The notes under the pieces were generated by a model. The model had not been told where the DNA came from. It did no database searches and saw only the letters and a list, made by a program, of their open reading frames with translations. From Saprospiraceae bacterium (GTDB lineage Bacteria; Bacteroidota; Bacteroidia; Chitinophagales; Saprospiraceae), in contig JADZFI010000045.1 in assembly GCA_020850025.1 (NCBI GenBank), positions 1-29,252 of the forward strand: a stretch of DNA of 29,252 bases. The letters run 5' to 3'. How positions within the stretch are numbered: position 1 is the first letter of the stretch; every line of letters starts with the position of its first letter. Shown piece after piece: positions 3-15,862 of the stretch. The position numbers and the translations under genes were made by a program.

Positions 3-1334
3 GACTCTGAGGGAAACCTTTGGGCTACCCACCCCAATCGCGGACTTTACCGCCTGAGGCTGAATGCGGAGCTGACGCAGGTGCAGGAGTTCAAGAAATT
101 CGGAAAGGAAGACGGGCTTACCTCCGATTACCAACTGGGATTGTGCGCAGTAGAGGAAGGTGGGCAAAAGCAAATGCTCGTAAACGCGCATCCTTCCGCT
201 TTCCGATTGAAAAATACGGCGGGAAAAACGACCCTCGAGCCACATTGGGGTAAAAAATGGATTTCGGGGGAGGGAGAAGAGGTATTCGTGCTGGACAGCA
301 GCGGGCTGTGGTTGCGCACCACCGGCAAAAAACCGGAAAAAATACCCCTGAATCTGGTTCCGGCTTACGAAAATGTAGAGTGCCTCGGGCCGGATGTTTA
401 CCTATTTTGTCTCGAAAACGGGTTTGCACTACTCCATACCCCCGACTTGCAGGCACAGGATTCCATCCGCAGCCTGCCTCCTACAATGGTCAGACTGGTC
501 ACTACAGCCGATCAGGAAACGTTTTTGCCGGGCGCTACGCTCCGTTTCCCATACCGACAGAACAGTCTGGAGTTTCAGTTTGCGCAGCCGGTTTACGGGC
601 AACCCAATCGGTTTTCCTGGTTTTTGGAAGGGTTTTCCAAGAGCTGGTCGCCCTGGAGCGCCACCGGGGAGAAGGAGTTTACGAATCTGCCGGAGGGAAG
701 GTATGTTTTCCGGGTGCGCAGTGAGGCCGGAGGCGAGGAAGCTACGGTTGTTTTCCGGATAGCTCCGCCCTGGTACCGCTCTTATTGGGCCATTGGCGCC
801 TATGGAATCTTATTCATCGCCCTGGCGGCATGGCTGGAATCTGTGAATCGCAAACGACTGGAACGGCACCGGCAACGTTTGGTGGCGGAAAAGGAGCGGG
901 AGATCCTGCAATTGGAAGTGGAAAATAAGAGCAGGGAGCTGTCGAACGCCGCATTCAACCTGATCCGCAAGAACGAGGCATTGCAGAGTCTGAAAGACCA
1001 TCTCATAGACGCCCATAATGAGCCCCGGGCCCTGTCTAAAATCGTTCGGGAGATAGACGCCCATCTGGAAGGTGATCACGATTGGGAAATGTTCGAGGCG
1101 TCCTTCAACCGGGTGCACGACGATTTCTTCAAACGCCTGATGCAAGCCTATCCAGACCTCACGCCGGGCGACCTCCGATTGGCGGCTTATTTGAAGATGA
1201 ACCTGTCTTCCAAGGAAATTGCCCCCCTGCTGAACATCTCCATTCGGGGCATTGAAAACAAACGATACCGCTTGCGCAAGAAACTCGGCTTGCCTGAAGA
1301 GGCCAATTTGACTGAATTTATTATGGCTTTTTAA
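3..1334 (+). CDS. Membrane-spanning sensor/transcription regulator with Y_Y_Y domain and C-terminal LuxR-type HTH (5'-partial)
   Basis: Frame is open from position 3 (DSEGNLWATHPNRGLYRL..., beta-propeller-like), so the true start lies left of the window and the track start at 81 is internal. Y_Y_Y motif FSWFLEGFSKSWSPW...FTNLPEGRYVFRVRS; TM helix WAIGAYGILFIALAAWL; LuxR HTH LTPGDLRLAAYLKMNLSSKEIAPLLNISIRGIENKRYRLRKKLGL. Confidence 0.9.
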   Translation, partial: DSEGNLWATHPNRGLYRLRLNAELTQVQEFKKFGKEDGLTSDYQLGLCAVEEGGQKQMLVNAHPSAFRLKNTAGKTTLEPHWGKKWISGEGEEVFVLDSSGLWLRTTGKKPEKIPLNLVPAYENVECLGPDVYLFCLENGFALLHTPDLQAQDSIRSLPPTMVRLVTTADQETFLPGATLRFPYRQNSLEFQFAQPVYGQPNRFSWFLEGFSKSWSPWSATGEKEFTNLPEGRYVFRVRSEAGGEEATVVFRIAPPWYRSYWAIGAYGILFIALAAWLESVNRKRLERHRQRLVAEKEREILQLEVENKSRELSNAAFNLIRKNEALQSLKDHLIDAHNEPRALSKIVREIDAHLEGDHDWEMFEASFNRVHDDFFKRLMQAYPDLTPGDLRLAAYLKMNLSSKEIAPLLNISIRGIENKRYRLRKKLGLPEEANLTEFIMAF

Positions 1335-1477: not shown

Positions 1478-3343
1478 ATGAGGATGTTTGCCCGAATCCG
1501 TTACGCTTGTCTTTTCTATGCCCTTTTCGTGCTTGGGTCTGCCCAGGCCCAGGTTCCCTCTGCACCGCAGGGGCTGGAGGCCGTCGGGTATGAAAAGCAT
1601 GTTGCCCTGAGCTGGAAGCCTAATACCGAAGCCAATGTCACGGGCTACAAAATTTACCGCTCTGTCAACGGGGGGGCATCCTTTGCCTTTCTTAAGCAAG
1701 TGGGCAAAGAAGCCCTGGCGGTTGACTGGACGGGCGATGAGGCGGAAGGGCTCGTAAGACACTACCGCGTTACGGCCTTTAGCGCAGCAGGTGAGAGCGG
1801 ATTTTCTACAGTAGATTCAGCTCAGTGCTTGCCCATGACCGACGAGGAACTGCTGGAAATGACTCAGCGCGCCACGTTTAGGTATTTTTGGGATTACGGT
1901 CACCCGGTGAGCGGTATGGCCCGCGAGCGCAGCAACGGAGATGCGAATATTGTGACCACGGGGGGCTCCGGTTTTGGCATCATGGCCATTCTGGTGGGCG
2001 CCGAACGCGGCTGGGTCAGCAGAACAGAAGCCTTGAACCGCCTGATACAAATAGCCTCCTTCCTGCAGTTTGCCGACCGGTTCCACGGCGTGTTCCCACA
2101 CTGGATGAACGGCACCAATGGCAATGTAATTCCATTCAGCCAGTTCGATGATGGCGGTGATTTGGTGGAAACGGCTTTTTTGATACAGGGATTATTGGCA
2201 GCTCGTCAGTATTTCAATCAGGACAACCCCCTGGAAAACGCGCTGCGCGACGTGATCACCGGTTTGTGGGAAGAAGTGGAGTGGGATTGGTATCGCAGAA
2301 ATAACAGCGGGGTACTTTACTGGCACTGGTCGCCGAACTACGGATGGCAGATGAACTTCCCTTTGCGGGGCTTCTACGAGGCACAGTTGGTGTACATTCT
2401 GGCGGCGGCTTCGCCTACGCATTCTGTGCCGGCCAGCTTGTATCAAACCGGCTGGACCTCCGGCAATTATGCCAACAACAGCACCCATTTTGGCTACAAG
2501 ATCTATTGTGGCCCGTTTGGCGGCGGTCCGCTGTTTTTTGCCCATTACTCCTACCTGGGCTTCGATCCTCGCGGGAAGCGGGATGCTTTCTGCAATTACT
2601 TTGTGCGCAACCGCAATCACTCCCTTATACAGCAGGCCTATGCGATTGCCAATCCGGAGCAGCACGCCGGATACGGTGCAGACTGTTGGGGGTTGACCTC
2701 CAGTGATGGGCCAAACGGTTATTCGGCGCACGATATCTGGCCAACCAACGATCATGGCACTATTGCTCCCACAGCTGCTCTTTCCAGTATGGCCTATACA
2801 CCGGAGGAGAGTATGGCTGCGCTGCGCCATTTCTACCGGGTGCGTGGTGAAAAACTCTGGGGCGTAGATGGTTTTTACGATGCATTTAATCTGAACCAGA
2901 ACTGGATTGCTCCTTCCTACCTGGCCATAGACCAGGGGCCTATTGTTGGCATGATAGAAAATTACCGCACGGGTTTGCTCTGGAACCTGTTCATGCAAAA
3001 TCCGGAAATCGCGCCGGCTTTGACCGCCGTCGGTTTTGTGCCCGACAACACCCCGGTTTCTGAACCGGAGGCAGATCATTCGCTTGACATAACCGTGACG
3101 CCCAACCCTGTCGTGGATGGGGTAGTGTCTTTGGACATACATTTAACTGAGGCTCAGGTGTTGAGTGCACGCTTGCGGGATGTTCGGGGTAAAATGGTGC
3201 AGGAACTTTTTTCTGCAGTGCCTTTCCCGGCAGGCGATATTCGCCAATCCTGGCCGCTAAAAGAACTCTCTTCCGGATTGTATTTCCTGGAAATCATCCA
3301 GCCCTCGGGTCGCGTTATCATACAAAAAGTGATACTCCATTAA
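1478..3343 (+). CDS. GH144-like (DUF3131/'glucoamylase' family) endo-beta-1,2-glucanase with N-terminal Fn3 domain and T9SS C-terminal sorting domain
   Basis: Signal peptide ending SAQAQ; Fn3 (PSAPQGL...LSWKPN...GYKIYRS...YRVTAF...GES); GH144 motifs GFGIMAILVGAERGW, FDDGGDLVETAFL, GGPLFFAHYSYLGFDP, WGLTSSD, YLAIDQGPIVGMIENYRTGLLW; CTD TPNP...LSSGLYFLEI...KVILH. Confidence 0.88.
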   Translation: MRMFARIRYACLFYALFVLGSAQAQVPSAPQGLEAVGYEKHVALSWKPNTEANVTGYKIYRSVNGGASFAFLKQVGKEALAVDWTGDEAEGLVRHYRVTAFSAAGESGFSTVDSAQCLPMTDEELLEMTQRATFRYFWDYGHPVSGMARERSNGDANIVTTGGSGFGIMAILVGAERGWVSRTEALNRLIQIASFLQFADRFHGVFPHWMNGTNGNVIPFSQFDDGGDLVETAFLIQGLLAARQYFNQDNPLENALRDVITGLWEEVEWDWYRRNNSGVLYWHWSPNYGWQMNFPLRGFYEAQLVYILAAASPTHSVPASLYQTGWTSGNYANNSTHFGYKIYCGPFGGGPLFFAHYSYLGFDPRGKRDAFCNYFVRNRNHSLIQQAYAIANPEQHAGYGADCWGLTSSDGPNGYSAHDIWPTNDHGTIAPTAALSSMAYTPEESMAALRHFYRVRGEKLWGVDGFYDAFNLNQNWIAPSYLAIDQGPIVGMIENYRTGLLWNLFMQNPEIAPALTAVGFVPDNTPVSEPEADHSLDITVTPNPVVDGVVSLDIHLTEAQVLSARLRDVRGKMVQELFSAVPFPAGDIRQSWPLKELSSGLYFLEIIQPSGRVIIQKVILH

Positions 3344-3402
3344 GCCGAAAACTATTGTAACTAAATCATTTTCACACATAACCAATGCTAAAAGAAGTGC
3401 TT

Positions 3403-6400
3403 ATGAAAAATTTGTTTATCACTGCCCTGCTTTTATTTTTCGGCAGTCTGGGCGTAAATGCTCAGGTTACCTACGAGGATTTTGAGGGCGGTACGCCCGA
3501 CCTCACCTGGACCGGCCTGAATGGCACCTATAATGGTGCGGTTCAAAATCCGGATCAAAGTGGCGTAAATATCAGTGAGTGGGTGGGTTCCTATACGAAT
3601 GCCCCAAATTTCGATTTCTGTTTTGCGTTGCACACTTTCCCGACCACCCTGGACATCAGTGAGTTCAACCAGTTCAAAATGAAAATCTGGTCGCCCACAG
3701 CCCCCAGTAAGGCTTTGCTGAAACTGGAAGGTCCGGGTGGCCCGGCGGTGGAAAAAATTGTGGATATTACCATTGCCAACCAATGGGTGGAGTACACCTT
3801 CGACCTTTCTGCGGGTGCCGGTTATACAAACCTGAAGACCATACTGGTGTCTTTCAATTCTTTCGTATTGGGAGACGACAAGACCTATTACTTCGACGAC
3901 ATTCGTGCTGAAAAAGCAGAAAACTGTTTGGCGGATTTTGAAGGACCGGGACTCAATTTTCAGGGCATTAACGGAATCCTCCTCGCTCCTGTAGACAATC
4001 CTGTTCCCAATTTTGTGAACAACAGTGCTCACTGCGCTGAATATGTCAAATCCCCTTTGCATGCTTACAGCCTGCTACTGGCAGATAATGGTACGCCCTT
4101 TGATCTCTCTGTGTACAATCAGTTCAATATTGACATCTTTGCCACTGCTCCAACACAGATTCTGTTCAAACTTGAAGGCGCAGGCGGTGGGTTTGAACAA
4201 ATAAAAAACATTGCAGTAACAGGCGCCTGGCAGACCTATTCCTTTGATTTTAGTGCCCAGGCTGCCAATACCGGACTAAGCAAGATCGTCATGTTCTTTG
4301 ACCCCGGGGTGGAAACAAGTGGAGATACCTATTACTTCGACAATGTTTGTGTGGTGCCGAGTCCTTGTAAAGATGTGGTGCCGGATCCTGACATTATTGA
4401 TGATTTTGAATGTAACCGGAATGCGACTTACACCGGTGATTGGAGCTTTTTCTCTGTTGTATCCAACCCGGCGCCAACGGGAGACAATAACTCTCCAAAA
4501 GTTGGACGTTTTGAGGACCCAAGCGGCCAGGGAACAGAATGGTCCAATCTTCAACTTGACTACGAAAATCCGATTGATCTTTCGGTGCGCAATCAATTCT
4601 CCTGCCAGTTATGGGCGCCCAAGGCCGGCAAATTGCTGATGAAAATTGAAGGTGGACCGAACCCTCCCAAAGAGGTCTTTATAGATGTAACAGAGCTCAA
4701 TAAATGGGTGACCTATACGGCCGATTTTTCCGATCAGGTAGGAAAGGGACACAAAAAAATTGTCCTGTTCTTTAATGCAGGCGTAAATGGCGAGCCCGGA
4801 GATGTGTACCATATTGACAACATCAAATTGTCTGCTCCAACCGCCGCTCCGCCGCTGGAAGATTTCCAGGACGGTATTCACCTCGGCTGGCAGCCACTTG
4901 ATCAAAACGAGCCTATTCATGGCGTTTTCCAGGGGCCGGTGAACAACCCAAATCCTAACGGCGTAAACAACTCCACTCAGGTGGGTTGCTACACAAAGGG
5001 TAGCTCTGCTTTCTCCACCTTGCAGGGCATTTCCCTGACGAATCTGGATCTCTCCATTTATGCGCAATTTAACCTCGATGTATTGAGCCCGGCCGTTGGC
5101 GGTACGGTGACGCTGATCCTGAATTCTCCTACCCAGGGCAATAAAGAGGCGGAAGCTGAGATTACTACGCCTGGTCAATGGGAGACACTCAGCTTTGACT
5201 TTTCTGCATTTAACGGCATCACCGACTTCGGTGAAGTGCGCATTATTTTCAATGCGGGAGTTGCTGCATTAGGTCAGGTCTGGTATTTCGACAACCTCCG
5301 TCAAACAGAAATTACCATCGACCCCTGTGCCGGTGTGGTACCAATTATTAATATCATTGACGACTTTGAGTGCCAGCGTAACTACACCCAGATCTTCTAC
5401 GGTGCAGATGATATTTCGGTGGTAAACAACCCGCACCTGACACCGGAAAACGGCTCACTAAAGGTGGGTGAATACAAGGATCCTGCGGGTGGAGGTACGG
5501 AATATGCCGGCATCGGTATTGAATTCCCTGCGGCTCCGGACCTGAGCGTGTACAACCACCTGTCTATGCTTGTTTGGTCGCCGGTTGCCAATGCTCCGTT
5601 CCTGTTCAAGCTGGAAGGCAACGGACCTGCAGTAGAGATTTTTGATACTGTGCCGGTAGCAAACGCCTGGTACAAGTTTGATATTGATTTCAGCGGAGCT
5701 GTGGGCACTGCGCACAACAAACTGGTTATTTTCGCTAATGTAGCCAGCGCCGTAGGTGGTGGTACTTATTATTACGACAATATCCGTTGGGCACGCGCCG
5801 GCTACAACGGCTGTATCGTGGATCACGAAGCGCCACAAACAACGCTTGGATTCAAATACTTCGCCAATGGATATCTGGAGGCTGCTGCCTATCAATTCGA
5901 AGTAATTGACAACCCAAATGCTTCCGGCATCAATACCAGCGGTAAGGTGGGTAAATTTGTTAAAGCAAAGGATGCCCTGCCATTTGCAGGTATCTACTCC
6001 TTCCCGGATCTGGAATCTCCTATCGACTGGAAAGGCGTGAAAACCGTTAAAGCCAAGGTTCACATGGACCACATCGGCAACTTTGCCGTGAAAGTGGAAG
6101 GTTCAGCTACAGGCGCTCCGGCATTTGAAATTCCGGTGGCCAATACCAAGATCAATGAGTGGGAAGAACTCACTTTCAACTTTGCCGCAGTACCGGACAA
6201 CGGAGAATACCGCCGTTTGACCCTGTTCTTCGATCTCGGAATTGATGCAACAGGACAAGACGTAACATCCTACTTCGATGATATCGTGATTGGCGACGGC
6301 AACTGTATCTCGGTTGGAACCTTCAGTCCGGAAGATATTGTGGCCATGCGCGTATCACCTAACCCAACCACAGAATGGCTGCTGGTGGAGAACATGGAAG

Positions 6401-6576
6401 AGGTAAGTCGTCTGGAAGTGTACGATATGTACGGACGCCGCGTAGCAGTGGCCAATACTTCCGGCGATACTACTACTGACCTGAATGTATCCCGTTTCCC
6501 TGCCGGCATGTACCTGTTGAATGGCTTTAACCGCCAGGGCATGCTGATAAGCAAGGCCAAGTTTGTGAAACAATGA
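3403..6576 (+). CDS. T9SS-secreted protein with six tandem ~150-aa CBM-like beta-sandwich repeats and no recognisable catalytic domain
   Basis: Likely start MKNLF at 3403 (alternative 3385), signal peptide ending VNAQ. Repeats share DFE, NP..xxN.S..VG, K(L/I/V)EG, W..(Y/L)xFDF and Y(Y/F/H)xD(N/D)(I/V/L) motifs. CTD VSPNP...PAGMYLL...KFVKQ. The CBM function is inferred. Confidence 0.8.
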   Translation: MKNLFITALLLFFGSLGVNAQVTYEDFEGGTPDLTWTGLNGTYNGAVQNPDQSGVNISEWVGSYTNAPNFDFCFALHTFPTTLDISEFNQFKMKIWSPTAPSKALLKLEGPGGPAVEKIVDITIANQWVEYTFDLSAGAGYTNLKTILVSFNSFVLGDDKTYYFDDIRAEKAENCLADFEGPGLNFQGINGILLAPVDNPVPNFVNNSAHCAEYVKSPLHAYSLLLADNGTPFDLSVYNQFNIDIFATAPTQILFKLEGAGGGFEQIKNIAVTGAWQTYSFDFSAQAANTGLSKIVMFFDPGVETSGDTYYFDNVCVVPSPCKDVVPDPDIIDDFECNRNATYTGDWSFFSVVSNPAPTGDNNSPKVGRFEDPSGQGTEWSNLQLDYENPIDLSVRNQFSCQLWAPKAGKLLMKIEGGPNPPKEVFIDVTELNKWVTYTADFSDQVGKGHKKIVLFFNAGVNGEPGDVYHIDNIKLSAPTAAPPLEDFQDGIHLGWQPLDQNEPIHGVFQGPVNNPNPNGVNNSTQVGCYTKGSSAFSTLQGISLTNLDLSIYAQFNLDVLSPAVGGTVTLILNSPTQGNKEAEAEITTPGQWETLSFDFSAFNGITDFGEVRIIFNAGVAALGQVWYFDNLRQTEITIDPCAGVVPIINIIDDFECQRNYTQIFYGADDISVVNNPHLTPENGSLKVGEYKDPAGGGTEYAGIGIEFPAAPDLSVYNHLSMLVWSPVANAPFLFKLEGNGPAVEIFDTVPVANAWYKFDIDFSGAVGTAHNKLVIFANVASAVGGGTYYYDNIRWARAGYNGCIVDHEAPQTTLGFKYFANGYLEAAAYQFEVIDNPNASGINTSGKVGKFVKAKDALPFAGIYSFPDLESPIDWKGVKTVKAKVHMDHIGNFAVKVEGSATGAPAFEIPVANTKINEWEELTFNFAAVPDNGEYRRLTLFFDLGIDATGQDVTSYFDDIVIGDGNCISVGTFSPEDIVAMRVSPNPTTEWLLVENMEEVSRLEVYDMYGRRVAVANTSGDTTTDLNVSRFPAGMYLLNGFNRQGMLISKAKFVKQ

Positions 6577-6643
6577 GTTTAGTTAGATTGGTTGCCCGTT
6601 GTCAGGCGGGCTCTGTTCCAAATTAAAACGATAAAACAATCGT

Positions 6644-6677
6644 ATTCGGGCGGCAGTACTAAGCCTGCCGCCCGAAT
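6644..6677 (+). other. Perfect 13-bp GC-rich intergenic hairpin (terminator-like or RNA-stabilising)
   Basis: ATTCGGGCGGCAG (6644-6656), loop TACTAAGC, CTGCCGCCCGAAT (6665-6677); only a short U run follows. Confidence 0.6.
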
Positions 6678-6722
6678 TTGGACAGCTTTCTGAGTGAAAT
6701 GAAGATCTTACTAAACCATGTT

Positions 6723-8891
6723 ATGAAGCATTTCCTCTTTTTAATTTTCCTGCTTTGGGGGGCAATGGCACACGCTCAGTCGCACTATGCCGGCATTGGC
6801 GCAGAGAACCCTCACTTCTCCCTGGACGAGGTACAAAAGCGGCATTTCCTCTATTTTTGGGAACTGGCGCACCCGGTCACCTTTCAGGTGCCCGATCGGT
6901 ATCCAACCGATCATTTTTCCAGTATTGCCGCCACCGGATTTGGTCTGTCGGCTTATCTGGTAGGAGCCGAACGCAAGTGGATTACCCGCGCACAGGCCGC
7001 TGAACGCGTACTACGTACGCTTGAATTTTTAAAAAACCTGCCTCAGGGTCCGGACGAATCCGGAACGGCAGGATACAAGGGGTGGTTCTACCATTTCCTG
7101 AAAACACAAGACGCGCTCAGATTTAAAAATGTTGAGCTCTCCAGCATAGACACCGGCCTGTTGATGGCAGGCGTGTTGTCGTGCATGACCTACTTCGACC
7201 GCAATACACCTACAGAAGAGGCCATCCGCAAAACTGCTGATTATCTATACCGCCAGATCGATTTCGGCTGGTTTATGAACGAACAAACGCGCCTGAGCAT
7301 GGGCTGGTTCCCGGAGCGCGACGGAGTCCTGGCTGCTGATTGGCGGGGGTACAACGAAGCCATGATCCTGAACATCATGGGTTTGGGTTCGCCCACCCAT
7401 CCACTACCCACCGAAACCTGGGAAAAATGGTGCGAGCCTTATTTCCGGGCTACGTTCATGGGGCAGGATCACGTCAACTTCGGCCCGATGTTCGGACATC
7501 AGTACAGCCATTGCTGGATTGATTTTCGGGGCATCCAGGATCCCTACATGAAAAAGATGGGAATAGATTATTTTGAAAATTCCCGTCGCGCCGCCCTGGC
7601 GCAACGCCAGTACTGCATTGAAAATCCCGGCCGGTTTAAGGGATATGGTCCCGAGATTTGGGGGCTTACCGCAGGCGATGGTCCGGATACCGATATGATG
7701 CATGAGGGCAAAAAAATCTATTGTCCGGGATATGGCGCCCGTGGCGTGGCCATTGATTATTTGGAAGACGATGGAACCATTGCCCCAACCGCCGCCATCG
7801 GTTGCATGCCTTTTGCACCGGAGGTGTGTTTGCCCACCCTGGAAGCTATGTGGAAACGCTGGCCGGTGGGTAAATATGGTTTTTTTGACGGGTATAATGA
7901 AACCTTCACCGAAATAGCGCGATCTCCCAAGGCGCAGCCCGGATATCCGTTCTGGGTGGATAAAGACTACCTGGGCATTGATCAGGGGCCTATTGTACTC
8001 ATGCTGGAAAATTACCGGTCCGGATTCTTATGGGATCTGATGAAGCGCAATCCGTACATCGTACGCGGCCTCAAGCGGGCAGGTTTCACCGGGGGCTGGC
8101 TCGATAAGGCAACCGCCGACCGAAGCGTTGATTTTTCCGGACAGGAGGCCAAGGTTGCCAGTCCAAATAAGCAAGTGCCGCTCGATCAGCACGGATTTTT
8201 CCAACGGGCCATTTATCAGGACAAGGAAGGCCACGCTCTGCCTTATCAGTTGATGACGCCCTGGCAAAAAAACTCTCCTAATGGTAAATATCCCCTGGTC
8301 ATTTTCCTGCATGGATCGGGCGAAAGAGGGAGTTTTAACCATGAACAAATGCGCAATGGCGTTCATGCCTTTTGCGAAACATGGGTGCGCGAAAAACATC
8401 CGCATTACCTGCTGGCCCCACAATGCCCGCCCGATATGCGTTGGGGCGGCAGCAGTAAAGACTGGCAAACCCTCTATCAGGAGAATCCCACTGTTCCCGG
8501 CCGCATGGTACTGGAACTGATAGAAAAGACCCTGGCCGAGCATCCTGATATTGATCGAAACCGAATTTACCTCACCGGCCTGAGCATGGGCGGGTTCGGT
8601 ACTTTTGATTTGTTGATGCGCAGGCCGGATTTGTTCGCTGCCGGGATGCCGCTGTGCGGTGGTGGCGATCCGCGTTATGCCGACAAAATTAAAAACATCC
8701 CCTTGTGGGTATTTCATGGTGCTCTGGACGATGTCGTGTATCCACGATGCTCCAGACAAATAGTGCAAGCGCTTAAAAAATCCGGCGGGAGAGTGCGTTA
8801 CACCGAGTTCTCTACGCTGTATCACGACATTTGGAATGTGGTGTATTACAATCCGGAAGTATTGGAGTGGTTGTTTGATCAACACAAGTGA
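6723..8891 (+). CDS. GH144-like glycoside hydrolase fused to a C-terminal alpha/beta-hydrolase serine esterase
   Basis: Likely start MKHFLF at 6723 with signal peptide ending AHAQ (track start 6678). GH part: SSIAATGFGLSAYLVGAERKW, GWFYHFL, ELSSIDTGLLMAG, WRGYNEAM, GPMFGHQYSHCWIDFRG, WGLTAGDG, LGIDQGPIVLMLENYRSG, ending AGFTGGWLD. Esterase part: FLHGSGERG, YLTGLSMGGFGT (GxSxG), FHGALDDVV, TLYHDIW. Confidence 0.85.
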   Translation: MKHFLFLIFLLWGAMAHAQSHYAGIGAENPHFSLDEVQKRHFLYFWELAHPVTFQVPDRYPTDHFSSIAATGFGLSAYLVGAERKWITRAQAAERVLRTLEFLKNLPQGPDESGTAGYKGWFYHFLKTQDALRFKNVELSSIDTGLLMAGVLSCMTYFDRNTPTEEAIRKTADYLYRQIDFGWFMNEQTRLSMGWFPERDGVLAADWRGYNEAMILNIMGLGSPTHPLPTETWEKWCEPYFRATFMGQDHVNFGPMFGHQYSHCWIDFRGIQDPYMKKMGIDYFENSRRAALAQRQYCIENPGRFKGYGPEIWGLTAGDGPDTDMMHEGKKIYCPGYGARGVAIDYLEDDGTIAPTAAIGCMPFAPEVCLPTLEAMWKRWPVGKYGFFDGYNETFTEIARSPKAQPGYPFWVDKDYLGIDQGPIVLMLENYRSGFLWDLMKRNPYIVRGLKRAGFTGGWLDKATADRSVDFSGQEAKVASPNKQVPLDQHGFFQRAIYQDKEGHALPYQLMTPWQKNSPNGKYPLVIFLHGSGERGSFNHEQMRNGVHAFCETWVREKHPHYLLAPQCPPDMRWGGSSKDWQTLYQENPTVPGRMVLELIEKTLAEHPDIDRNRIYLTGLSMGGFGTFDLLMRRPDLFAAGMPLCGGGDPRYADKIKNIPLWVFHGALDDVVYPRCSRQIVQALKKSGGRVRYTEFSTLYHDIWNVVYYNPEVLEWLFDQHK

Positions 8892-8926
8892 TAAAGCTCC
8901 GGACGATCTCATTTTACTCAATCGAT

Positions 8927-11161
8927 ATGCAATCAATCAAATCATTATCAACCACTGTAATAGTGCTGCTTTGCTGTTTAACCGGTTTGTTGGCACAGCC
9001 CTACAGGCCCTCTGCTGCCATCAATGCCCGGGTAGAAACCCTCCTTTCCAAAATGACGCTGGAGGAGAAGATCGGGCAACTCACCCTGTACACCACCGAT
9101 TGGGGAAGCACAGGCCCCACCATACGCGAGGGTTATAAGGACGATATTCGCAAGGGCGCCTGCGGGAACCTGTTCAACAGCCACTCCACGGCTTTTGTGC
9201 GCGAATTGCAAAAGGTGGCGGTGGAAGAAACACGCCTGAAAATTCCGCTGCTGTTTGGCTTTGATGTCATTCACGGCTACAAAACCATTTTCCCCATTCC
9301 CCTGGGAGAGGCTGCCAGCTGGGATCTGGAGGCTATCGAGAAATCGGCCAGGGTAGCCTCTACCGAGGCCAGTGCGGCCGGCCTCAACTGGACCTTTGCT
9401 CCGATGGTAGACATCAGCCGCGATCCGCGCTGGGGTCGCGTCATGGAAGGCGCCGGCGAGGACCCCTACCTGGGCAGTCGCATAGCCGAGGCACGCGTGA
9501 AGGGCATTCAGGGCAAAAAATTAGGCGATCCGGATGCCATGCTGGCCTGCGTGAAACACTTTGCCGGCTATGGCGCGCCCATGGGAGGCCGCGATTATAA
9601 CACGGTGGATATGAGTGAAAAGTATTTCCGGGAATTTTATTTACCGCCCTACCAGGCCGCCATCAATGCCGGTGCCGCCACGGTAATGACCTCTTTTAAC
9701 GATTACGATGGCATTCCAGCCTCCGGAAGCAAGTTTCTGCTCGATCAGATCCTGCGGAAAGAATGGGGATTTGAAGGCTTTGTGGTAACCGATTACACCA
9801 GCATCAATGAAATGGTGATGCACGGGGTGGTGGCCAACGATAAAGAGGCCGGTGAACTGGCTTTGAACGCCGGCGTGGATATGGACATGCAGGGCGGCAT
9901 TTATCAGGCCTATTTGAAAAAATCGCTGCAAGAGGGCAAAGTGACCCAGGCGCAAATTGATGAAGCCGTGCGCCGTGTGCTACGCCTGAAATTTGAACTC
10001 GGCCTGTTTGAAGATCCCTACAAGTTTTGCAATGCCGAGCGCGAAAAAAATACCCTGCTTGCGCCCGCCCACCGCGCAGCCGCACGTGAGGTGGCACGAA
10101 AATCCATTGTCTTGTTGAAAAACGACCAGGAGGTGCTTCCATTAAAACCATCACAGAAAATTGCCTTGATTGGCCCACTGGCCGATAACAAAACGGAACT
10201 CATCGGCAACTGGAACGGCGCCGGTAATTTCAATGATTGTGTCAGTCTCAAAGAAGGATTAAGTGGTGCAAACATGCAATATGCCAAAGGCTGCGAGCTG
10301 GACGGCGCCGATCGTTCCGGATTTCAGGAGGCCCTGCGCATTGCCGGACAATCAGATATTATTGTGGTGGCAGTGGGTGAAAAAGCCAATATTAGCGGAG
10401 AGGCAACTTCCAAAACACAGATCAACCTGCCTGGCGTTCAGGAGGAACTGGTGCTGGAGCTCTGCAAAACCGGCAAACCGGTGGTGGTCGTGCTGATGAA
10501 TGGTCGCCCGGTGGTGATACCGGGCATTGCCGAAAAGGCAAATGCTATTTTGGAAACCTGGTGGCTGGGCACCGAAGCCGGCAATGCCATAGCCGATGTG
10601 TTGTGGGGAAAATATAATCCTTCCGGCAAACTCCCGATGTCGTTTCCGCGCTCGGAGGGCCAGATTCCGGTGTTTTACAATGAGAAAAGCACCGGCCGCC
10701 CCTTCGACCCCAATTCCAAGTGGACCAGCAAATACATTGACGAATCAAACAGTCCGCAATGGCCCTTTGGCTACGGCCTGAGCTATACCAGCTTTGCTTA
10801 CACTACGCCCAAAGCGAGCGTTGAAACCGCCACCACTCGCGGTATTCCATCCGGTAAACAGGTGAAAGTGTGGGTGAGTGTAACCGTAAGCAATACCGGA
10901 AAAGTAGCCGGCGAAGAAGTGGTGCAGTTATATATCCGCGACCTGGTGGGCTCTACCACCCGCCCGGTGAAGGCATTAAAAGGATTCCGCAAAATCATGC
11001 TGCAACCCGGAGAAAGTCGTGAAGTCCGTTTCGACCTTACGGCCGACGACTTGAGTTTTTACCGCAGTGATAATACATTTGGCATGGAACCCGGAGAGTT
11101 CGACATCATGGTGGGCGGCAGCTCCAATGATGTGAAATCGGTGCGTATCAGAGTGAATTGA
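8927..11161 (+). CDS. bglX: GH3 beta-glucosidase (BglX type), secreted/periplasmic
   Basis: Likely start MQSIK at 8927 (GTG at 8888 is the alternative). Motifs DVIHG, RDPRWGRVMEGAGEDPYL, CVKHFAGYG, GFVVTDY (nucleophile Asp), SGEA, PFGYGLSYT and a C-terminal Fn3-like domain GEEVVQLYIRD. Confidence 0.93.
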   Translation: MQSIKSLSTTVIVLLCCLTGLLAQPYRPSAAINARVETLLSKMTLEEKIGQLTLYTTDWGSTGPTIREGYKDDIRKGACGNLFNSHSTAFVRELQKVAVEETRLKIPLLFGFDVIHGYKTIFPIPLGEAASWDLEAIEKSARVASTEASAAGLNWTFAPMVDISRDPRWGRVMEGAGEDPYLGSRIAEARVKGIQGKKLGDPDAMLACVKHFAGYGAPMGGRDYNTVDMSEKYFREFYLPPYQAAINAGAATVMTSFNDYDGIPASGSKFLLDQILRKEWGFEGFVVTDYTSINEMVMHGVVANDKEAGELALNAGVDMDMQGGIYQAYLKKSLQEGKVTQAQIDEAVRRVLRLKFELGLFEDPYKFCNAEREKNTLLAPAHRAAAREVARKSIVLLKNDQEVLPLKPSQKIALIGPLADNKTELIGNWNGAGNFNDCVSLKEGLSGANMQYAKGCELDGADRSGFQEALRIAGQSDIIVVAVGEKANISGEATSKTQINLPGVQEELVLELCKTGKPVVVVLMNGRPVVIPGIAEKANAILETWWLGTEAGNAIADVLWGKYNPSGKLPMSFPRSEGQIPVFYNEKSTGRPFDPNSKWTSKYIDESNSPQWPFGYGLSYTSFAYTTPKASVETATTRGIPSGKQVKVWVSVTVSNTGKVAGEEVVQLYIRDLVGSTTRPVKALKGFRKIMLQPGESREVRFDLTADDLSFYRSDNTFGMEPGEFDIMVGGSSNDVKSVRIRVN

Positions 11162-11299: not shown

Positions 11300-14230
11300 A
11301 TGAAGCACTTATACAAAAAAAACTCTTTGCTTGCCTTGTTTGTGACGTTGCTTGCTGCAACCTCGTGGGCCCAGGTCAAAGTTACCGGCCGTGTGGTGGA
11401 CGAACCCGCCGGCGATGCGGTTATCGGCGCAACGGTCCGTGAAAAAGGCGCTCCCAATGGCGCCATCACCGATTATGACGGCAACTTCAGCATCACGGTG
11501 AAAGACCTCAATGCCACGCTCGTGATCAACTACACCGGCTATCTTGCTCAGGAAGTACCGCTCAATGGCAGAAGTACTGTAGAGGTAAAACTGCTGGAAG
11601 ACGATGGTATTCTGGAAGAAGTAGTGGTGGTGGGGTATGGCATTCAGCGCAAAAGCGACCTCACCGGATCGGTGGGGTCAGTGAAGGCCAAGGAGCTGGA
11701 GCGCATTCCCACGGCATCGCTGGAACAGGCGCTTCAGGGTAAAATGGCCGGCGTATACGTATCTCCCTCCAGCGGCGAGCCAGGCGCCGGCGCTGTCATC
11801 CGTATTCGCGGTACCGGTACGTTGAACAATGCCAGTCCGCTGTTTGTGGTAGACGGGATGTTGCTCGACGACATTTCCTTCCTTAACCCACAGGACGTTG
11901 CCAGCGTGGAGGTTTTGAAAGACGCCTCTTCGACGGCTATTTACGGCAACCGTGGCGCCAACGGGGTAATCATCATTACCACCAAACGTGGTCTTACGGA
12001 TACCAAAGCATCGGTTACGCTCAATTCCTATTATGGTACCCAGCAGATTGCCAGAAAACTGCCCCTGGCCAATGCTTCCCAGTTCGCGGAGATGTACAAC
12101 GAGCTCAAGGGCAATAATTTTTATCCCGATCCGGCGGCGCTGGGAACGGGCACAGACTGGCAGGATGTCATTTTCCGCGATGCCCCCATGGCCAGTGTGC
12201 AATTGGGCGTAGGCGGTATCTGGAAGAAAATCAACTACAACGTTTCCGGAAACCTCTTCGATCAGCAAGGTATTATGGAGGAAACCGGATTCCGCCGTTA
12301 CACCGGACGCCTGAATGCAGAATATCCGGTGTTGAAAACCCTTCGGGTTGGAACCAACCTGGCTTATTCCAACAGCAAATTCAATACCGTTGGCGGCGGC
12401 GTTCTGGGAGGAATGTACCGCATGCCTCCTGTCTTTGGCGAGCGCGACAGCACCGGCAAGTTCACCGATCCAACCTTTTTCGGACAGTCGATCGGTAATC
12501 CTGCCGCTGATTTGTTTTACAAAAATGATCAGCACACACGGTCCAATCGCTGGGTAGGTACTGTTTATGCCAACTGGACCTTCCTGAAGTATTTCACCTT
12601 CCGCACCAATTATGGTTTCGACAGCCGAAAGGATTATTTTTATGGCTTTGAACCCATCTTTATGGTGTCGTCTTCCCAGTTGAACAACCTGGAGCGCACT
12701 TCCAGAGATTCGTCCAGGTTCCAAAACTGGCTCTGGGAAAACACCCTCACTTACGACCGCAGTTGGGAAGATTTTCGTTTGAATGTACTGGCCGGGCAAA
12801 CGGCGCAGGAGTTTACCTTTAAGAAGCGCCGTACCATTAATAATGTTCTTCAGCCCAATGGGGAAGAGTTTAGCGACTGGGCCATGCTCAGCTATCTGGG
12901 TCGGGTAAATGCTACCTTCTTCGACCGTTATCTGCTTACGGCTTCTTTGCGCGCGGATGGCTCCTCCCGTTTCAACAAAAACAACCGCTGGGGCTATTTC
13001 CCTTCCGTTGCGGCCGGCTGGAATATTTCGCAGGAACCCTTTATGCGCGGGTTCAAACTGTTTGACCGCCTGAAATTGCGCGCCTCCTGGGGGGTAACCG
13101 GTAACGACAAAATCCAGAACTATCCATCGCTCGGTATCATCACGCCGGAGCTGTATGGGGCATTCAATGATACCATACAATCCGGCGCCACGCTTACCAA
13201 TTACGCCAATGCCGATGTTCGCTGGGAAACTACCGAGCAAACAGATATTGGTTTGGAGTTTGGCCTGTTTAAAGGCCGCTTTACAGCAGAGATTGACTGG
13301 TTCAGGAGGTTTACGTATGATATTTTGGGCGATTTGCCCATTCCGGACGATGTGGGCTCCGGCAGCAATCCGTTTGTGAATGCAGCACAAGTAGAGAACA
13401 TAGGCTGGGACTTTACAGTGAACTGGCGCGAAGTGAAGCGCAAGTTTTCCTACAATCTGGGTATAAACGTTTCTCCCATTCAAAACAAAGTGCTCAAACT
13501 GAACGACGGAAAATCTGAAATCTTTGAGGCACGCACTGCCCAGGGCGACTTCGCCACGCGGACGGTAGTGGGGCAGCCTATTGGCGCTTTCTACGGATAT
13601 CAGGTAGCCGGTGTGTTCCAGAACCAGGAAGAAATAGACAGCTCCCCAAATTTCGGCAACGAGCAGCCGGGCGATTTTCGTTTTGCCGACCTGAATGGCG
13701 ATGGAGTGCTCTCGGCCGACGACCGTACGTACCTGGGCAGCCCGATTCCTACCCTGATCTACGGCTTTAACGCCGGATTTGAGGTCTCCGGGTTTGATGT
13801 GGCTTTTGATTTCTTCGGTGTGGAGGGCAACAAGGTGGTGAATGCCAAGGCAGTGGCCCGTTTTGATACGCCCAACTGGGAAGCCCTCTGGTACGAGAAC
13901 CGCTGGACCGGAGAAGGCGCCAGTAATTCCGTTCCGCGGGTTACCAATGGTGGACACAACTACAGAATGTCGGACTTCTTGGTGGAAGACGGCGGCTTTT
14001 TCCGTCTGCGCAGCGTGGTGCTGGGATATACCCTGCCTAAAAAATGGCTGAGTGCAGCGGGCATCAAGGCAGCCAGACTGTATGCCAGCGGCACTAATTT
14101 GTGGACCAAACAGGCATATTCAGGCTTCACGCCGGAATTCCCCAACGACAGCGTGTTCCGAGCCGGGATGGACTACCTGAACTATCCAATGGCAAGAACA
14201 GTGTTATTTGGTTTGAACGTAACCTTCTAA
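11300..14230 (+). CDS. susC: SusC/RagA family TonB-dependent outer-membrane transporter
   Basis: Signal peptide; N-terminal carboxypeptidase-regulatory-like domain; plug motifs EEVVVVGYG, DLTGSV, PLFVVDG, LKDASSTAIYGNRGANGVIIITTKRG; ends GLNVTF; immediately followed by a SusD gene. Confidence 0.96.
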   Translation: MKHLYKKNSLLALFVTLLAATSWAQVKVTGRVVDEPAGDAVIGATVREKGAPNGAITDYDGNFSITVKDLNATLVINYTGYLAQEVPLNGRSTVEVKLLEDDGILEEVVVVGYGIQRKSDLTGSVGSVKAKELERIPTASLEQALQGKMAGVYVSPSSGEPGAGAVIRIRGTGTLNNASPLFVVDGMLLDDISFLNPQDVASVEVLKDASSTAIYGNRGANGVIIITTKRGLTDTKASVTLNSYYGTQQIARKLPLANASQFAEMYNELKGNNFYPDPAALGTGTDWQDVIFRDAPMASVQLGVGGIWKKINYNVSGNLFDQQGIMEETGFRRYTGRLNAEYPVLKTLRVGTNLAYSNSKFNTVGGGVLGGMYRMPPVFGERDSTGKFTDPTFFGQSIGNPAADLFYKNDQHTRSNRWVGTVYANWTFLKYFTFRTNYGFDSRKDYFYGFEPIFMVSSSQLNNLERTSRDSSRFQNWLWENTLTYDRSWEDFRLNVLAGQTAQEFTFKKRRTINNVLQPNGEEFSDWAMLSYLGRVNATFFDRYLLTASLRADGSSRFNKNNRWGYFPSVAAGWNISQEPFMRGFKLFDRLKLRASWGVTGNDKIQNYPSLGIITPELYGAFNDTIQSGATLTNYANADVRWETTEQTDIGLEFGLFKGRFTAEIDWFRRFTYDILGDLPIPDDVGSGSNPFVNAAQVENIGWDFTVNWREVKRKFSYNLGINVSPIQNKVLKLNDGKSEIFEARTAQGDFATRTVVGQPIGAFYGYQVAGVFQNQEEIDSSPNFGNEQPGDFRFADLNGDGVLSADDRTYLGSPIPTLIYGFNAGFEVSGFDVAFDFFGVEGNKVVNAKAVARFDTPNWEALWYENRWTGEGASNSVPRVTNGGHNYRMSDFLVEDGGFFRLRSVVLGYTLPKKWLSAAGIKAARLYASGTNLWTKQAYSGFTPEFPNDSVFRAGMDYLNYPMARTVLFGLNVTF

Positions 14231-14371: not shown

Positions 14372-15862
14372 ATGAACAAGCTTTTAAAATATCTCAGCGC
14401 AGCAGTTATGGTGCTGCTTTCCATCACCAGTTGCCAAAAAGACTTCCTGGAGCGCCGGCCGGAGGGTCGCCTCACTTTCGAGGAATTCTTTCAAATAGAG
14501 GCACATGCCATAGAGGCCACCAATGCCGTGTATGCTCAGTATCGGGAATTTGATCTGGTTGCTTTGCCTTATCTGGCTTGCACCGATATCCTGAGCGATG
14601 ATGCGGATAAAGGTTCTACCCAGAACGACGCTCCCTTGATCAGCGACCTGGATAATTTCACCCTGGATGCCACCAATCCTTATGTGGCGCCCGTGTACCG
14701 GGGCCATTACCGCGCCATTGCCAGGGCTAATCTGGCCATTGAAAACATACCGAACATTGAGATGGATGCTGCTCTGCGTGACCGGCTGGTGGGGGAGTGT
14801 AAGTTCCTCAGGGCGTATAGTTACCTGCTGCTGGTACAATGGTTTGGCGATTTGCCGCTCATCACCAGAACCCTTCAGGGCGACGAGTACTACTCCCAGA
14901 CCCGCCAGGATAAAAGTCTGATATATGATCAGATTGAGGCTGATCTCAAAGATGCCATCAATGCACTGCCCGATAAAGCCGGATATGCACAGGCAGATAA
15001 GGGTCGCGCTACCAAGGCGGCCGCACAGGGTCTGTTGGCCAAGTTGTACATGATCAAACACGATTGGGCGGCTGCGGAAACACAGTGCATGGACATCATC
15101 AACAGCACTCAGTACAGCCTGTTGACACGCTATGCCGACAATTTCCTGCCCGTGGGTGAAAACGGCGCAGAATCTATTTTTGAAATGCAGGCGGTGGCTC
15201 TGCCCACCCAGCAAGCTGCCGGGCCGGGCGCTTCTCCTTTCAATATGGTGCAGGGAGTGCGCGGTATTCCCAATTTGGGCTGGGGCTTTAACCGGCCTTC
15301 TGATAACCTGGTGTCTGCCTATGAAAATGGCGATCCAAGGCGGGAGGCCACGATCATTTATGTTGGGGAAATTCTGCCCGATGGGTCCACTCAGGTACAG
15401 GACAATCCTGAGATCATCAACGAGCGTTTCAACCAGAAAGCATGGGTGCCGGCCCACCCCGGTTTGCAGGACAATGGTCCGGGCAATATCCGGGTACTTC
15501 GTTATGCAGACATCCTGCTGTTGGCTGCCGAGGCTAAAAACGAACTCGGCAAATCCGGCGAAGCCTTGCCGCTCCTGAACCAGGTGCGCAAACGCGCCCG
15601 TGGTACCAATAACTTCATTCTGCCGGATATTACAGTAACTGACCAGGCCATGCTGCGCGAACGAATTTACCGCGAGCGCCGGGTGGAACTGGCCATGGAA
15701 CAACACCGCTGGTTTGATCTGCTGCGCTGGGGCCGGGCCGCTCAGGTGATGCAGGCAGTGGGCAAAGCCAATTTTGTGCCCGGCAAACATGAACTGCTGC
15801 CCATACCGCAAACTGAAGTGGATTTGACCAGCGGTCGAATTACGCAGAATCCGATGTACTAA
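14372..15862 (+). CDS. susD: RagB/SusD family glycan-binding lipoprotein
   Basis: Lipobox ITSC; SusD motifs IARANLAI, GECKFLRAYSYLLLVQWFGDLP, RYADILLLAAEA, ERRVELAMEQHRWFDLLRWG, QNPMY. Confidence 0.95.
   Translation: MNKLLKYLSAAVMVLLSITSCQKDFLERRPEGRLTFEEFFQIEAHAIEATNAVYAQYREFDLVALPYLACTDILSDDADKGSTQNDAPLISDLDNFTLDATNPYVAPVYRGHYRAIARANLAIENIPNIEMDAALRDRLVGECKFLRAYSYLLLVQWFGDLPLITRTLQGDEYYSQTRQDKSLIYDQIEADLKDAINALPDKAGYAQADKGRATKAAAQGLLAKLYMIKHDWAAAETQCMDIINSTQYSLLTRYADNFLPVGENGAESIFEMQAVALPTQQAAGPGASPFNMVQGVRGIPNLGWGFNRPSDNLVSAYENGDPRREATIIYVGEILPDGSTQVQDNPEIINERFNQKAWVPAHPGLQDNGPGNIRVLRYADILLLAAEAKNELGKSGEALPLLNQVRKRARGTNNFILPDITVTDQAMLRERIYRERRVELAMEQHRWFDLLRWGRAAQVMQAVGKANFVPGKHELLPIPQTEVDLTSGRITQNPMY

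Follow-up and report, generated by a model that had tools for sequence, protein, structure and literature searches.

The 29,252-nucleotide contig JADZFI010000045.1 of a Saprospiraceae bacterium (assembly GCA_020850025.1), which as a whole is called the window here, carries on its forward strand a gene that joins a domain of glycoside hydrolase family 144 (GH144) to an alpha/beta-hydrolase esterase domain (6723..8891, +). This fusion is real and conserved. Analyses of other Bacteroidota showed that it mirrors a widespread and overlooked neighbourhood of GH144 and esterase genes, a survey result that is new.

The GH144-esterase fusion gene

The reading frame is open from 6678 to 8891 (+) and encodes 722 amino acids from the likely start ATG 6723 to the stop codon TGA (8889-8891); TTG 6678 and ATG 6699 are other possible upstream starts. 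The protein has four parts: a type-I signal peptide, the GH144 domain, a linker of approximately 28 amino acids and the alpha/beta-hydrolase. This is the anatomy given in the original prediction, a GH144-like glucanase followed by a linker and a complete esterase with a Ser-Asp-His triad, and domain searches agree with it. The motifs on which it was based are present as well: AGFTGGWLD ends at nucleotide 8105, and HGSGERG, GLSMGG, GALDDVV and LYHDIW share one frame.

The signal peptide (6723..6779, +) is a hydrophobic stretch of 19 residues ending in AHA-QS. Neither a lipobox cysteine nor the C-terminal domain of the type IX secretion system (T9SS; Por_Secre_tail) was found in the fusion protein by sequence inspection and Pfam scan, unlike in the two genes upstream, which both carry a T9SS sorting domain. 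Since the type-I signal peptide comes without a lipoprotein cysteine, the fusion protein is predicted to be periplasmic. The linker (approximately amino acids 463-490; 8109..8192, +) has a predicted local distance difference test score (pLDDT) of about 72 in the model, and its length differs among homologues. A spacer of 146 nucleotides (6577-6722) separates the start codon from the stop codon of the upstream gene and contains a GC-rich hairpin at approximately 6643-6676, which may be a terminator, an attenuator or a member of the dispersed hairpin repeats of this genome.

The N-terminal head (amino acids 35-462; 6825..8108, +) is predicted to fold into an (alpha/alpha)6-barrel of the XcSGL-like GH144 subfamily. 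PF10091, the Pfam 'Glycoamylase' family, which includes GH144, matches amino acids 206-444 (E 3e-79). The best solved relative in the PDB sequence search is 8XUL (XcSGL, XCC2207 of Xanthomonas campestris; E 2e-138 over amino acids 35-462), with much weaker matches to CpSGL from Chitinophaga (E 1e-53), reportedly described by Abe et al. in 2017, and to structures from Bacteroides (approximately 1e-50 to 1e-60). An AlphaFold model of the fusion protein (pLDDT 88.8, predicted TM-score 0.86) superimposes on 8XUL with a TM-score of 0.94 and a root mean square deviation of 2.0 over 441 columns (Foldseek), with 48% identity in the structural alignment. By alignment E212 (7356-7358), F257 (7491-7493) and Y337 (7731-7733, all +) match XcSGL E239, F286 and Y367, which are conserved throughout the SGL clan, E239 being the acid catalyst (PMC12102758). 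None of the three residues varies among 34 fused homologues (53-87% identity); the glutamine opposite E212 in the 8XUL alignment is due to the crystallised XcSGL being an E239Q mutant. All features that can be computed, namely similarity, modelled fold and residues, thus assign the N-terminal head to GH144. XcSGL has been characterised as beta-1,2-glucan-specific, and this specificity has been shown for members of both GH144 subfamilies (PMC12102758).

The C-terminal head (8193..8888, +) was identified with Pfam, PDB and model comparisons as a TmEstA-like esterase domain of the alpha/beta-hydrolase fold (ESTHER Abhydrolase_5). Several overlapping alpha/beta-hydrolase families of Pfam match amino acids 524-705. 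The PDB sequence search ranks 3DOH first among solved relatives (Thermotoga maritima EstA, TM0033; 43% identity, E 8e-56, amino acids 497-721), followed by LC-Est1C (3WYD, E 4e-23) and the Haliangium carboxylesterase HoEst (4Q82, E 4e-11). A separate model of amino acids 480-722 (pLDDT 91.7) gave Z-scores of 33.9, 24.9 and 24.4 with the same three structures; below them the scores reach a plateau at about 21 that is made up of generic lipases, feruloyl esterases and catalytic domains of S9 peptidases. The putative nucleophile S621 (8583-8585), D669 (8727-8729) and H701 (8823-8825, all +) align with positions 271, 319 and 359 of the 3DOH chain. With an offset of +15 these positions are presumably Ser286, Asp334 and His374, the EstA triad in the numbering that Levisson et al. 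reportedly used in 2009. H530 (8310-8312, +) belongs to the HG oxyanion motif. Two alignments show the triad and HG motif unchanged, and of the 120 fused cluster representatives more than 110 retain GLSMGG and more than 110 the His-x-x-Trp motif.

Two family names that databases use for this head were tried and rejected. Peptidase S9 (prolyl oligopeptidase) does not fit: there is no beta-propeller, the S9 match comprises merely the 82 residues 579-660 (profile positions 30-111 of 213), and S9 peptidases align with the head at 16-20% identity. The CE1/PHB-depolymerase type does not fit either, as the NCBIfam models esterase_phb and e_dPHAscl_type1 scored 39 and 54 bits against cut-offs of 108 and 150. 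A structure search revealed no Swiss-Prot structure with more than 19% identity to the esterase head. PF18435, which in TmEstA forms an N-terminal Ig-like domain, gave no match in the fusion protein; this domain is a trait of TmEstA and not of the whole family, as LC-Est1C and most relatives are without it. TmEstA, LC-Est1 and HoEst all belong to ESTHER Abhydrolase_5, whose CAZy status is 'not listed' and whose activity is 'undefined' (PMC12103068), which agrees with the earlier view that this esterase family is poorly characterised.

The junction between the two domains is found in independent contigs. A 1557-nucleotide contig from run X1 (activated sludge) spans positions 7700-8700 with 17 substitutions and no gap, and the junction is also crossed by contigs of run X2 (8008-8502) and run X3 (7700-8182 and 8160-8547). 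Each of these runs belongs to a study of its own; besides X1 they are one freshwater and one sludge run. A word-indexed protein search identified at least 120 protein clusters (90% identity) with the same fused architecture, at identities down to 52%. In a scan of species-representative genomes, 20 species-level metagenome-assembled genomes (MAGs) gave a full-length match to the fusion (67-87% identity); they are named Saprospiraceae, Lewinellaceae, Chitinophagales or Bacteroidota. The contigs from three studies together with the frame conserved in MAGs and clusters confirm the junction and rule out the assembly artefact that had been considered for it. Among 401 sampled Bacteroidota genomes the fusion was found only in the genome of the window.

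Two candidates for a natural fission of the gene turned out to be something else: P0126 is a gene merely cut by the end of a 980-nucleotide contig, and P0131 is a fused gene with a single in-frame stop. The latter, on a metagenome contig (L031:3-1979, +), has its stop within the GH144 part, and gene callers give two open reading frames for it; the gene is a pseudogene unless the stop is a sequencing error.

The surrounding locus and its relatives in Bacteroidota

The window shows the features of a Bacteroidota polysaccharide utilization locus (PUL): an adjacent SusC/SusD pair with a regulator, two GH144 domains and one GH3 gene, all on a single strand. The locus begins with a regulator that has a Y_Y_Y domain and a LuxR-type helix-turn-helix (81..1334, +; the open reading frame may run past the window start), and a regulator of this type heads the locus in 11 MAGs. 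It is followed by a second GH144 gene with a T9SS C-terminal sorting domain (1478..3343, +), a predicted secreted or surface endo-beta-1,2-glucanase. With E-values of 1e-142 to CpSGL and 1e-51 to XcSGL, this protein falls into the other subfamily than the fused head. The next gene (3385..6576, +) encodes a T9SS-sorted protein of 1063 amino acids with modules resembling carbohydrate-binding modules (CBM). It is predicted to bind glucan and is conserved in fused loci; domain searches found no catalytic domain in it.

Downstream of the fusion gene lies a BglX-type GH3 beta-glucosidase gene (8888..11161, +), identified by domain and PDB searches. The best PDB matches of its product include the 'periplasmic beta-glucosidase' 5XXL, which we take to be BT_3567 of B. 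thetaiotaomicron, and Lin1840; both presumably act on beta-1,2-gluco-oligosaccharides. The listed GTG start of this gene overlaps the TGA of the fusion gene (GTGA, 8888-8891), but its homologues align only from approximately residue 10-48 of the GH3 protein, and the true start may therefore lie further downstream. The outer-membrane import pair follows with SusC (11300..14230, +; TIGR04056, E 4e-265) and SusD (14372..15862, +; Pfam matches). A surface glycan-binding lipoprotein after SusD was not found in the window.

As far as the contigs reach, the syntenic order in the MAGs is regulator, T9SS-sorted CpSGL-like GH144, CBM protein, fusion, GH3, SusC and SusD, and at least eight MAGs keep this layout in full. 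The enzymes thus come first and SusC/SusD last, a layout that is kept in related MAGs. The outer-surface parts (GH144 at 1478-3343 and CBM protein at 3385-6576) are T9SS-sorted, where the usual PULs use lipoproteins. Similarity searches with the extra PUL genes of other loci revealed no glycosidase in Saprospiraceae fused loci beyond GH144, GH144-esterase and GH3.

The pairing of this esterase with GH144 is also found outside the fusion. An evenly drawn sample of 401 Bacteroidota genomes was searched with the esterase domain and with PF10091 (cut-off E <= 1e-20). An esterase of this family was present in 100 of the 401 genomes and GH144 in 144. The esterase gene is an immediate neighbour of a GH144 gene, or is found within approximately 6 kb of one on the same strand, in at least 29 of the 100 esterase-bearing genomes, usually in the order GH144, esterase, GH3. 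The genomes with such neighbours span eight families, and their count is a lower bound. By chance about 0.6 cases per 100 genomes would be expected (for a 4-Mb genome with one gene for the esterase and two for GH144); a p-value is not given because related genomes are not independent. Together with the fused genes of 20 MAG species and 120 or more clusters, these neighbours bear out the genomic association of esterase and GH144 on which the original prediction depended.

We compared 21 loci, of which 20 were fetched from the neighbour set and one was among 18 comparison loci. All 21 show the arrangement SusC-SusD-(LamG protein)-GH144(x1-2)-esterase-(GH43)-GH3. The stand-alone esterases are approximately 260 amino acids long and nearly all have a type-I signal peptide; two copies have a lipoprotein signal. 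The fusion mirrors this neighbourhood, since in many genomes the stand-alone esterase gene is found beside GH144. In PULDB the esterase is shown just as 'unk', and no discussion of it was found; it seems to be hidden under 'unk' in the PULDB strings, such as 'GH144 GH144 unk GH3' of Cellulophaga algicola, Marivirga tractuosa and a Chryseobacterium. The gene between GH144 and GH3 went unnamed because its esterase family is not in CAZy.

Some family members occur in other arrangements. One locus encodes on the minus strand (L064:8156-10723, -) a protein of 855 amino acids with an esterase domain of the same family and a T9SS sorting domain, and this gene adjoins two genes for XcSGL-like GH144 proteins; given the sorting domain and the GH144 neighbours, it may be a secreted version of the pairing. 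Distant esterases of the family are fused to unidentified domains in two further loci (L086:10001-10687 and L087:9947-10705, in open reading frames of 712 and 539 amino acids). Both adjoin divergent GH3 genes and one lies also beside a SusC/SusD pair; the family may thus serve other glycan loci, too.

In a tree of 75 esterase domains the fused esterases make up one clade (support 95), and the GH144-adjacent stand-alone ones are spread over two or more further clades. Forcing all GH144-linked esterases into one clade costs 37 log-likelihood units (approximately unbiased test, p-AU 0.047). This result is only suggestive of repeated recruitment of esterase clades to GH144, because the constrained group was defined after the tree had been seen. 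CpSGL-like GH144 proteins pair with two esterase clades, and XcSGL-like ones have the esterase either as a neighbour (L068, L071) or fused. The data do not support the simple idea that the fusion arose from neighbour genes like those of the other loci: most other loci combine a CpSGL-like GH144 with other esterase clades, and the fusion combines an XcSGL-like GH144 with a clade of its own. Whichever way it arose, the pairing of GH144 and esterase has been kept or re-made over much of the phylum.

Proposed function and alternatives

In Proteobacteria, beta-1,2-glucans such as osmoregulated periplasmic glucans (OPGs) and cyclic glucans act in symbiosis, virulence and osmoprotection. Succinyl or acetyl groups are common on them, and the enzymes responsible for adding such groups have been identified. 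The substituents described for cyclic and linear beta-1,2-glucans of Proteobacteria are O-succinyl, O-acetyl, phosphoglycerol and phosphoethanolamine (PMC11842490). A Ser-Asp-His carboxylesterase could remove the succinyl and acetyl groups but not the phosphoglycerol and phosphoethanolamine groups, because the latter are phosphodiesters. Phosphoglycerol, which the original prediction had listed among the substituents, is hence an implausible substrate for an enzyme of the alpha/beta-hydrolase fold.

With moderate confidence we propose that the fusion protein is a periplasmic two-headed enzyme of a beta-1,2-glucan utilization locus that both deacylates and cleaves the glucan. Beta-1,2-glucan that other Gram-negative bacteria release would be bound and nicked extracellularly by the CBM protein and the T9SS-secreted CpSGL-like GH144, and SusC/SusD would import the fragments. 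In the periplasm the esterase head, with its EstA-type residues Ser621, Asp669 and His701, would hydrolyse O-acyl esters on the glucose units, most likely succinyl and/or acetyl esters. The XcSGL-like head, with Glu212 as general acid, would cut the chain into short sophoro-oligosaccharides, which the GH3 beta-glucosidase of the next gene would take to glucose. The fusion would fix a 1:1 ratio and keep together two activities that other Bacteroidota encode as neighbour genes. The order of these steps and the identity of the cleaved ester are inferred from the genomic context.

The same context makes deacylation coupled to cleavage the most economical reading; it consists of the fusion itself, the conserved order of GH144, esterase and GH3, and the presence of a second esterase, of the GDSL type, in three related loci and of a metallophosphoesterase in one. 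An uncharacterised and unclassified 'acetyl-esterase' has been noted within a beta-1,2-glucan cluster of Streptomyces griseus (PMC12369401). No deacylase of beta-1,2-glucan emerged from literature searches; Caulobacter EstG comes nearest to one. More tentatively, at slightly less than even chances, the GH144-linked esterases, both the fused ones and the stand-alone copies of Flavobacteriia-, Cytophagia- and Chitinophagia-type loci, might be the first beta-1,2-glucan deacylases, acting as de-succinylases and/or deacetylases.

Several observations weigh against this proposal. To our knowledge, the characterised relatives TmEstA and LC-Est1 are known only from their action on artificial esters. 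The esterase family is large and promiscuous in its context: it comprises 17,923 clusters (50% identity, E <= 1e-3), with many stand-alone proteins and other architectures such as tandem esterases, SGNH esterases, Ig-like domains, CBM9 and GH28. The stand-alone esterases closest to the query (41-48% identity) lie outside glycan loci, and the nearest stand-alone relative of the fused clade in the tree (P0143) has an unrelated, non-glycan context. Gut Bacteroides loci in PULDB are mostly 'SusC SusD GH3 GH144' (PMC6499787); as these mostly lack the esterase, deacylation is not needed for the use of beta-1,2-glucan itself. Finally, many stand-alone loci contain additional genes. GH43 with an F5/8-C domain is found in 14 of 22 of them (L052-L071, L088 and L089), GH2 in L068 and L071, and a calcineurin-like metallophosphoesterase in L065; further extras are a GDSL/SGNH esterase (L052, L088, L089), DUF4886 (L067) and a LamG-type protein after SusD. 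These extra genes suggest a decorated or composite natural substrate, and the frequency of GH43, GH2 and other genes in the non-fused loci means that the target glycan may be more elaborate than plain OPG or cyclic glucan.

Taken further, the extra genes would mean that the locus targets a more complex glycan with beta-1,2-glucan stretches, from which the esterase removes another ester, for example on side chains. PULDB contains a cluster 'GH144 GH3 GH43_28' and marine versions with a sulfatase, from which Lapebie et al. infer an unknown decorated polysaccharide (PMC6499787), and one Bacteroides GH144 locus includes a GH35 beta-1,2-galactosidase. The fused loci of Saprospiraceae, however, show only GH144, GH144-esterase and GH3, and both GH144 subfamilies have members specific for beta-1,2-glucan. 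We therefore regard a more complex target as unlikely, although it deserves consideration.

It is less likely still that the esterase head has no role in glycan breakdown and works as a lipase, peptidase or carboxylesterase of a general kind, which either came to be linked to GH144 by genomic hitch-hiking or serves another periplasmic task. Such a role would suit database names such as 'dienelactone hydrolase' and 'prolyl oligopeptidase family serine peptidase', the many family members in unrelated contexts and the widely varying multi-domain architectures. It does not explain the GH144/GH3 neighbourhood in eight families, the involvement of at least three esterase clades or the one fusion that stays intact down to 52% identity. 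A peptidase is in addition disfavoured by the missing S9 propeller and the short S9 match, and the closest solved structures are carboxylesterases.

That the esterase head has lost hydrolysis and now serves as a binding or scaffolding module, or acts as a transacylase, is very improbable: the fused homologues show no variation in the triad, GxSxG elbow or HG oxyanion motif, which indicates selection on catalysis. An assembly or gene-calling artefact joining two neighbour genes can be dismissed, even though the source genome, that of an uncultured sludge bacterium, is a fragmented MAG (531 contigs, 76.5% complete), since contigs from three studies bridge the junction gap-free, the frame runs on uninterrupted in 120 or more clusters and in 20 MAG species, and the single apparent split copy (L031) owes its state to one in-frame stop inside the GH144 part.

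Significance and comparison with known systems

GH144 loci are among the commonest PUL types of Bacteroidota. The pairing described here exposes an overlooked core component of this type and gives the vague annotation 'peptidase/phospholipase' a candidate natural substrate. If the proposed deacylation is true, it would provide the first natural substrate for the structurally solved but functionally undefined ESTHER Abhydrolase_5 and probably a new carbohydrate esterase family. Environmental Bacteroidota would then routinely forage on acylated periplasmic and cyclic glucans of Proteobacteria, which would explain the recycling of decorated bacterial glucans in sludge, soil and water. The enzyme would also be a tool for making defined, deacylated cyclic glucans.

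The two heads have their closest counterparts in separate proteins. The esterase head shares with TmEstA, LC-Est1 and HoEst the placement of its HG motif, GLSMGG elbow and Ser-Asp-His triad; TmEstA differs in its N-terminal Ig-like domain, which stands where the fusion has GH144. In T. maritima, TM0033 presumably adjoins a gene cluster for beta-glucan utilization, a context that is not counted as evidence here. The N-terminal head keeps the general-acid Glu, the Phe and the Tyr of XcSGL. XcSGL itself lacks an esterase and has nothing but a disordered extension at its C-terminus; its host produces glucan, and its gene is not part of a SusC/SusD locus.

As a whole, the locus follows the logic of the Bacteroidota GH144/GH3 PULs, such as that of CpSGL and the PULDB type 'GH144 GH3' (Lapebie et al., 2019; PMC6499787), which combine SusC/SusD with an endo-beta-1,2-glucanase and GH3. 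In contrast to these, the window has its enzymes ahead of SusC/SusD, relies on T9SS sorting in place of lipoprotein anchors for two proteins, and carries the esterase on one polypeptide with an XcSGL-type GH144.

The fusion of a glycoside hydrolase with an esterase is already familiar as a design. The xylanase-feruloyl esterases XynY and XynZ of C. thermocellum likewise carry a backbone-cleaving glycoside hydrolase and an ester-removing alpha/beta-hydrolase on one polypeptide, and the XynY esterase domain is among the distant structural matches of the esterase head. They differ in glycoside hydrolase family, in esterase family and in their substrate, xylan, and they are extracellular or cellulosomal, whereas the fusion protein is predicted to be periplasmic. 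A periplasmic esterase tied to glucans is EstG of Caulobacter crescentus, which is genetically linked to OPG metabolism (OpgH, BglX) and for which a cyclic hexaglucan substrate has been proposed (bioRxiv 10.1101/2022.04.12.488081). EstG has a beta-lactamase/transpeptidase fold and serves envelope homeostasis by acting on glucan of the cell itself (bioRxiv 10.1101/2022.04.12.488081), whereas the fusion protein would serve foraging on the glucans of other bacteria.

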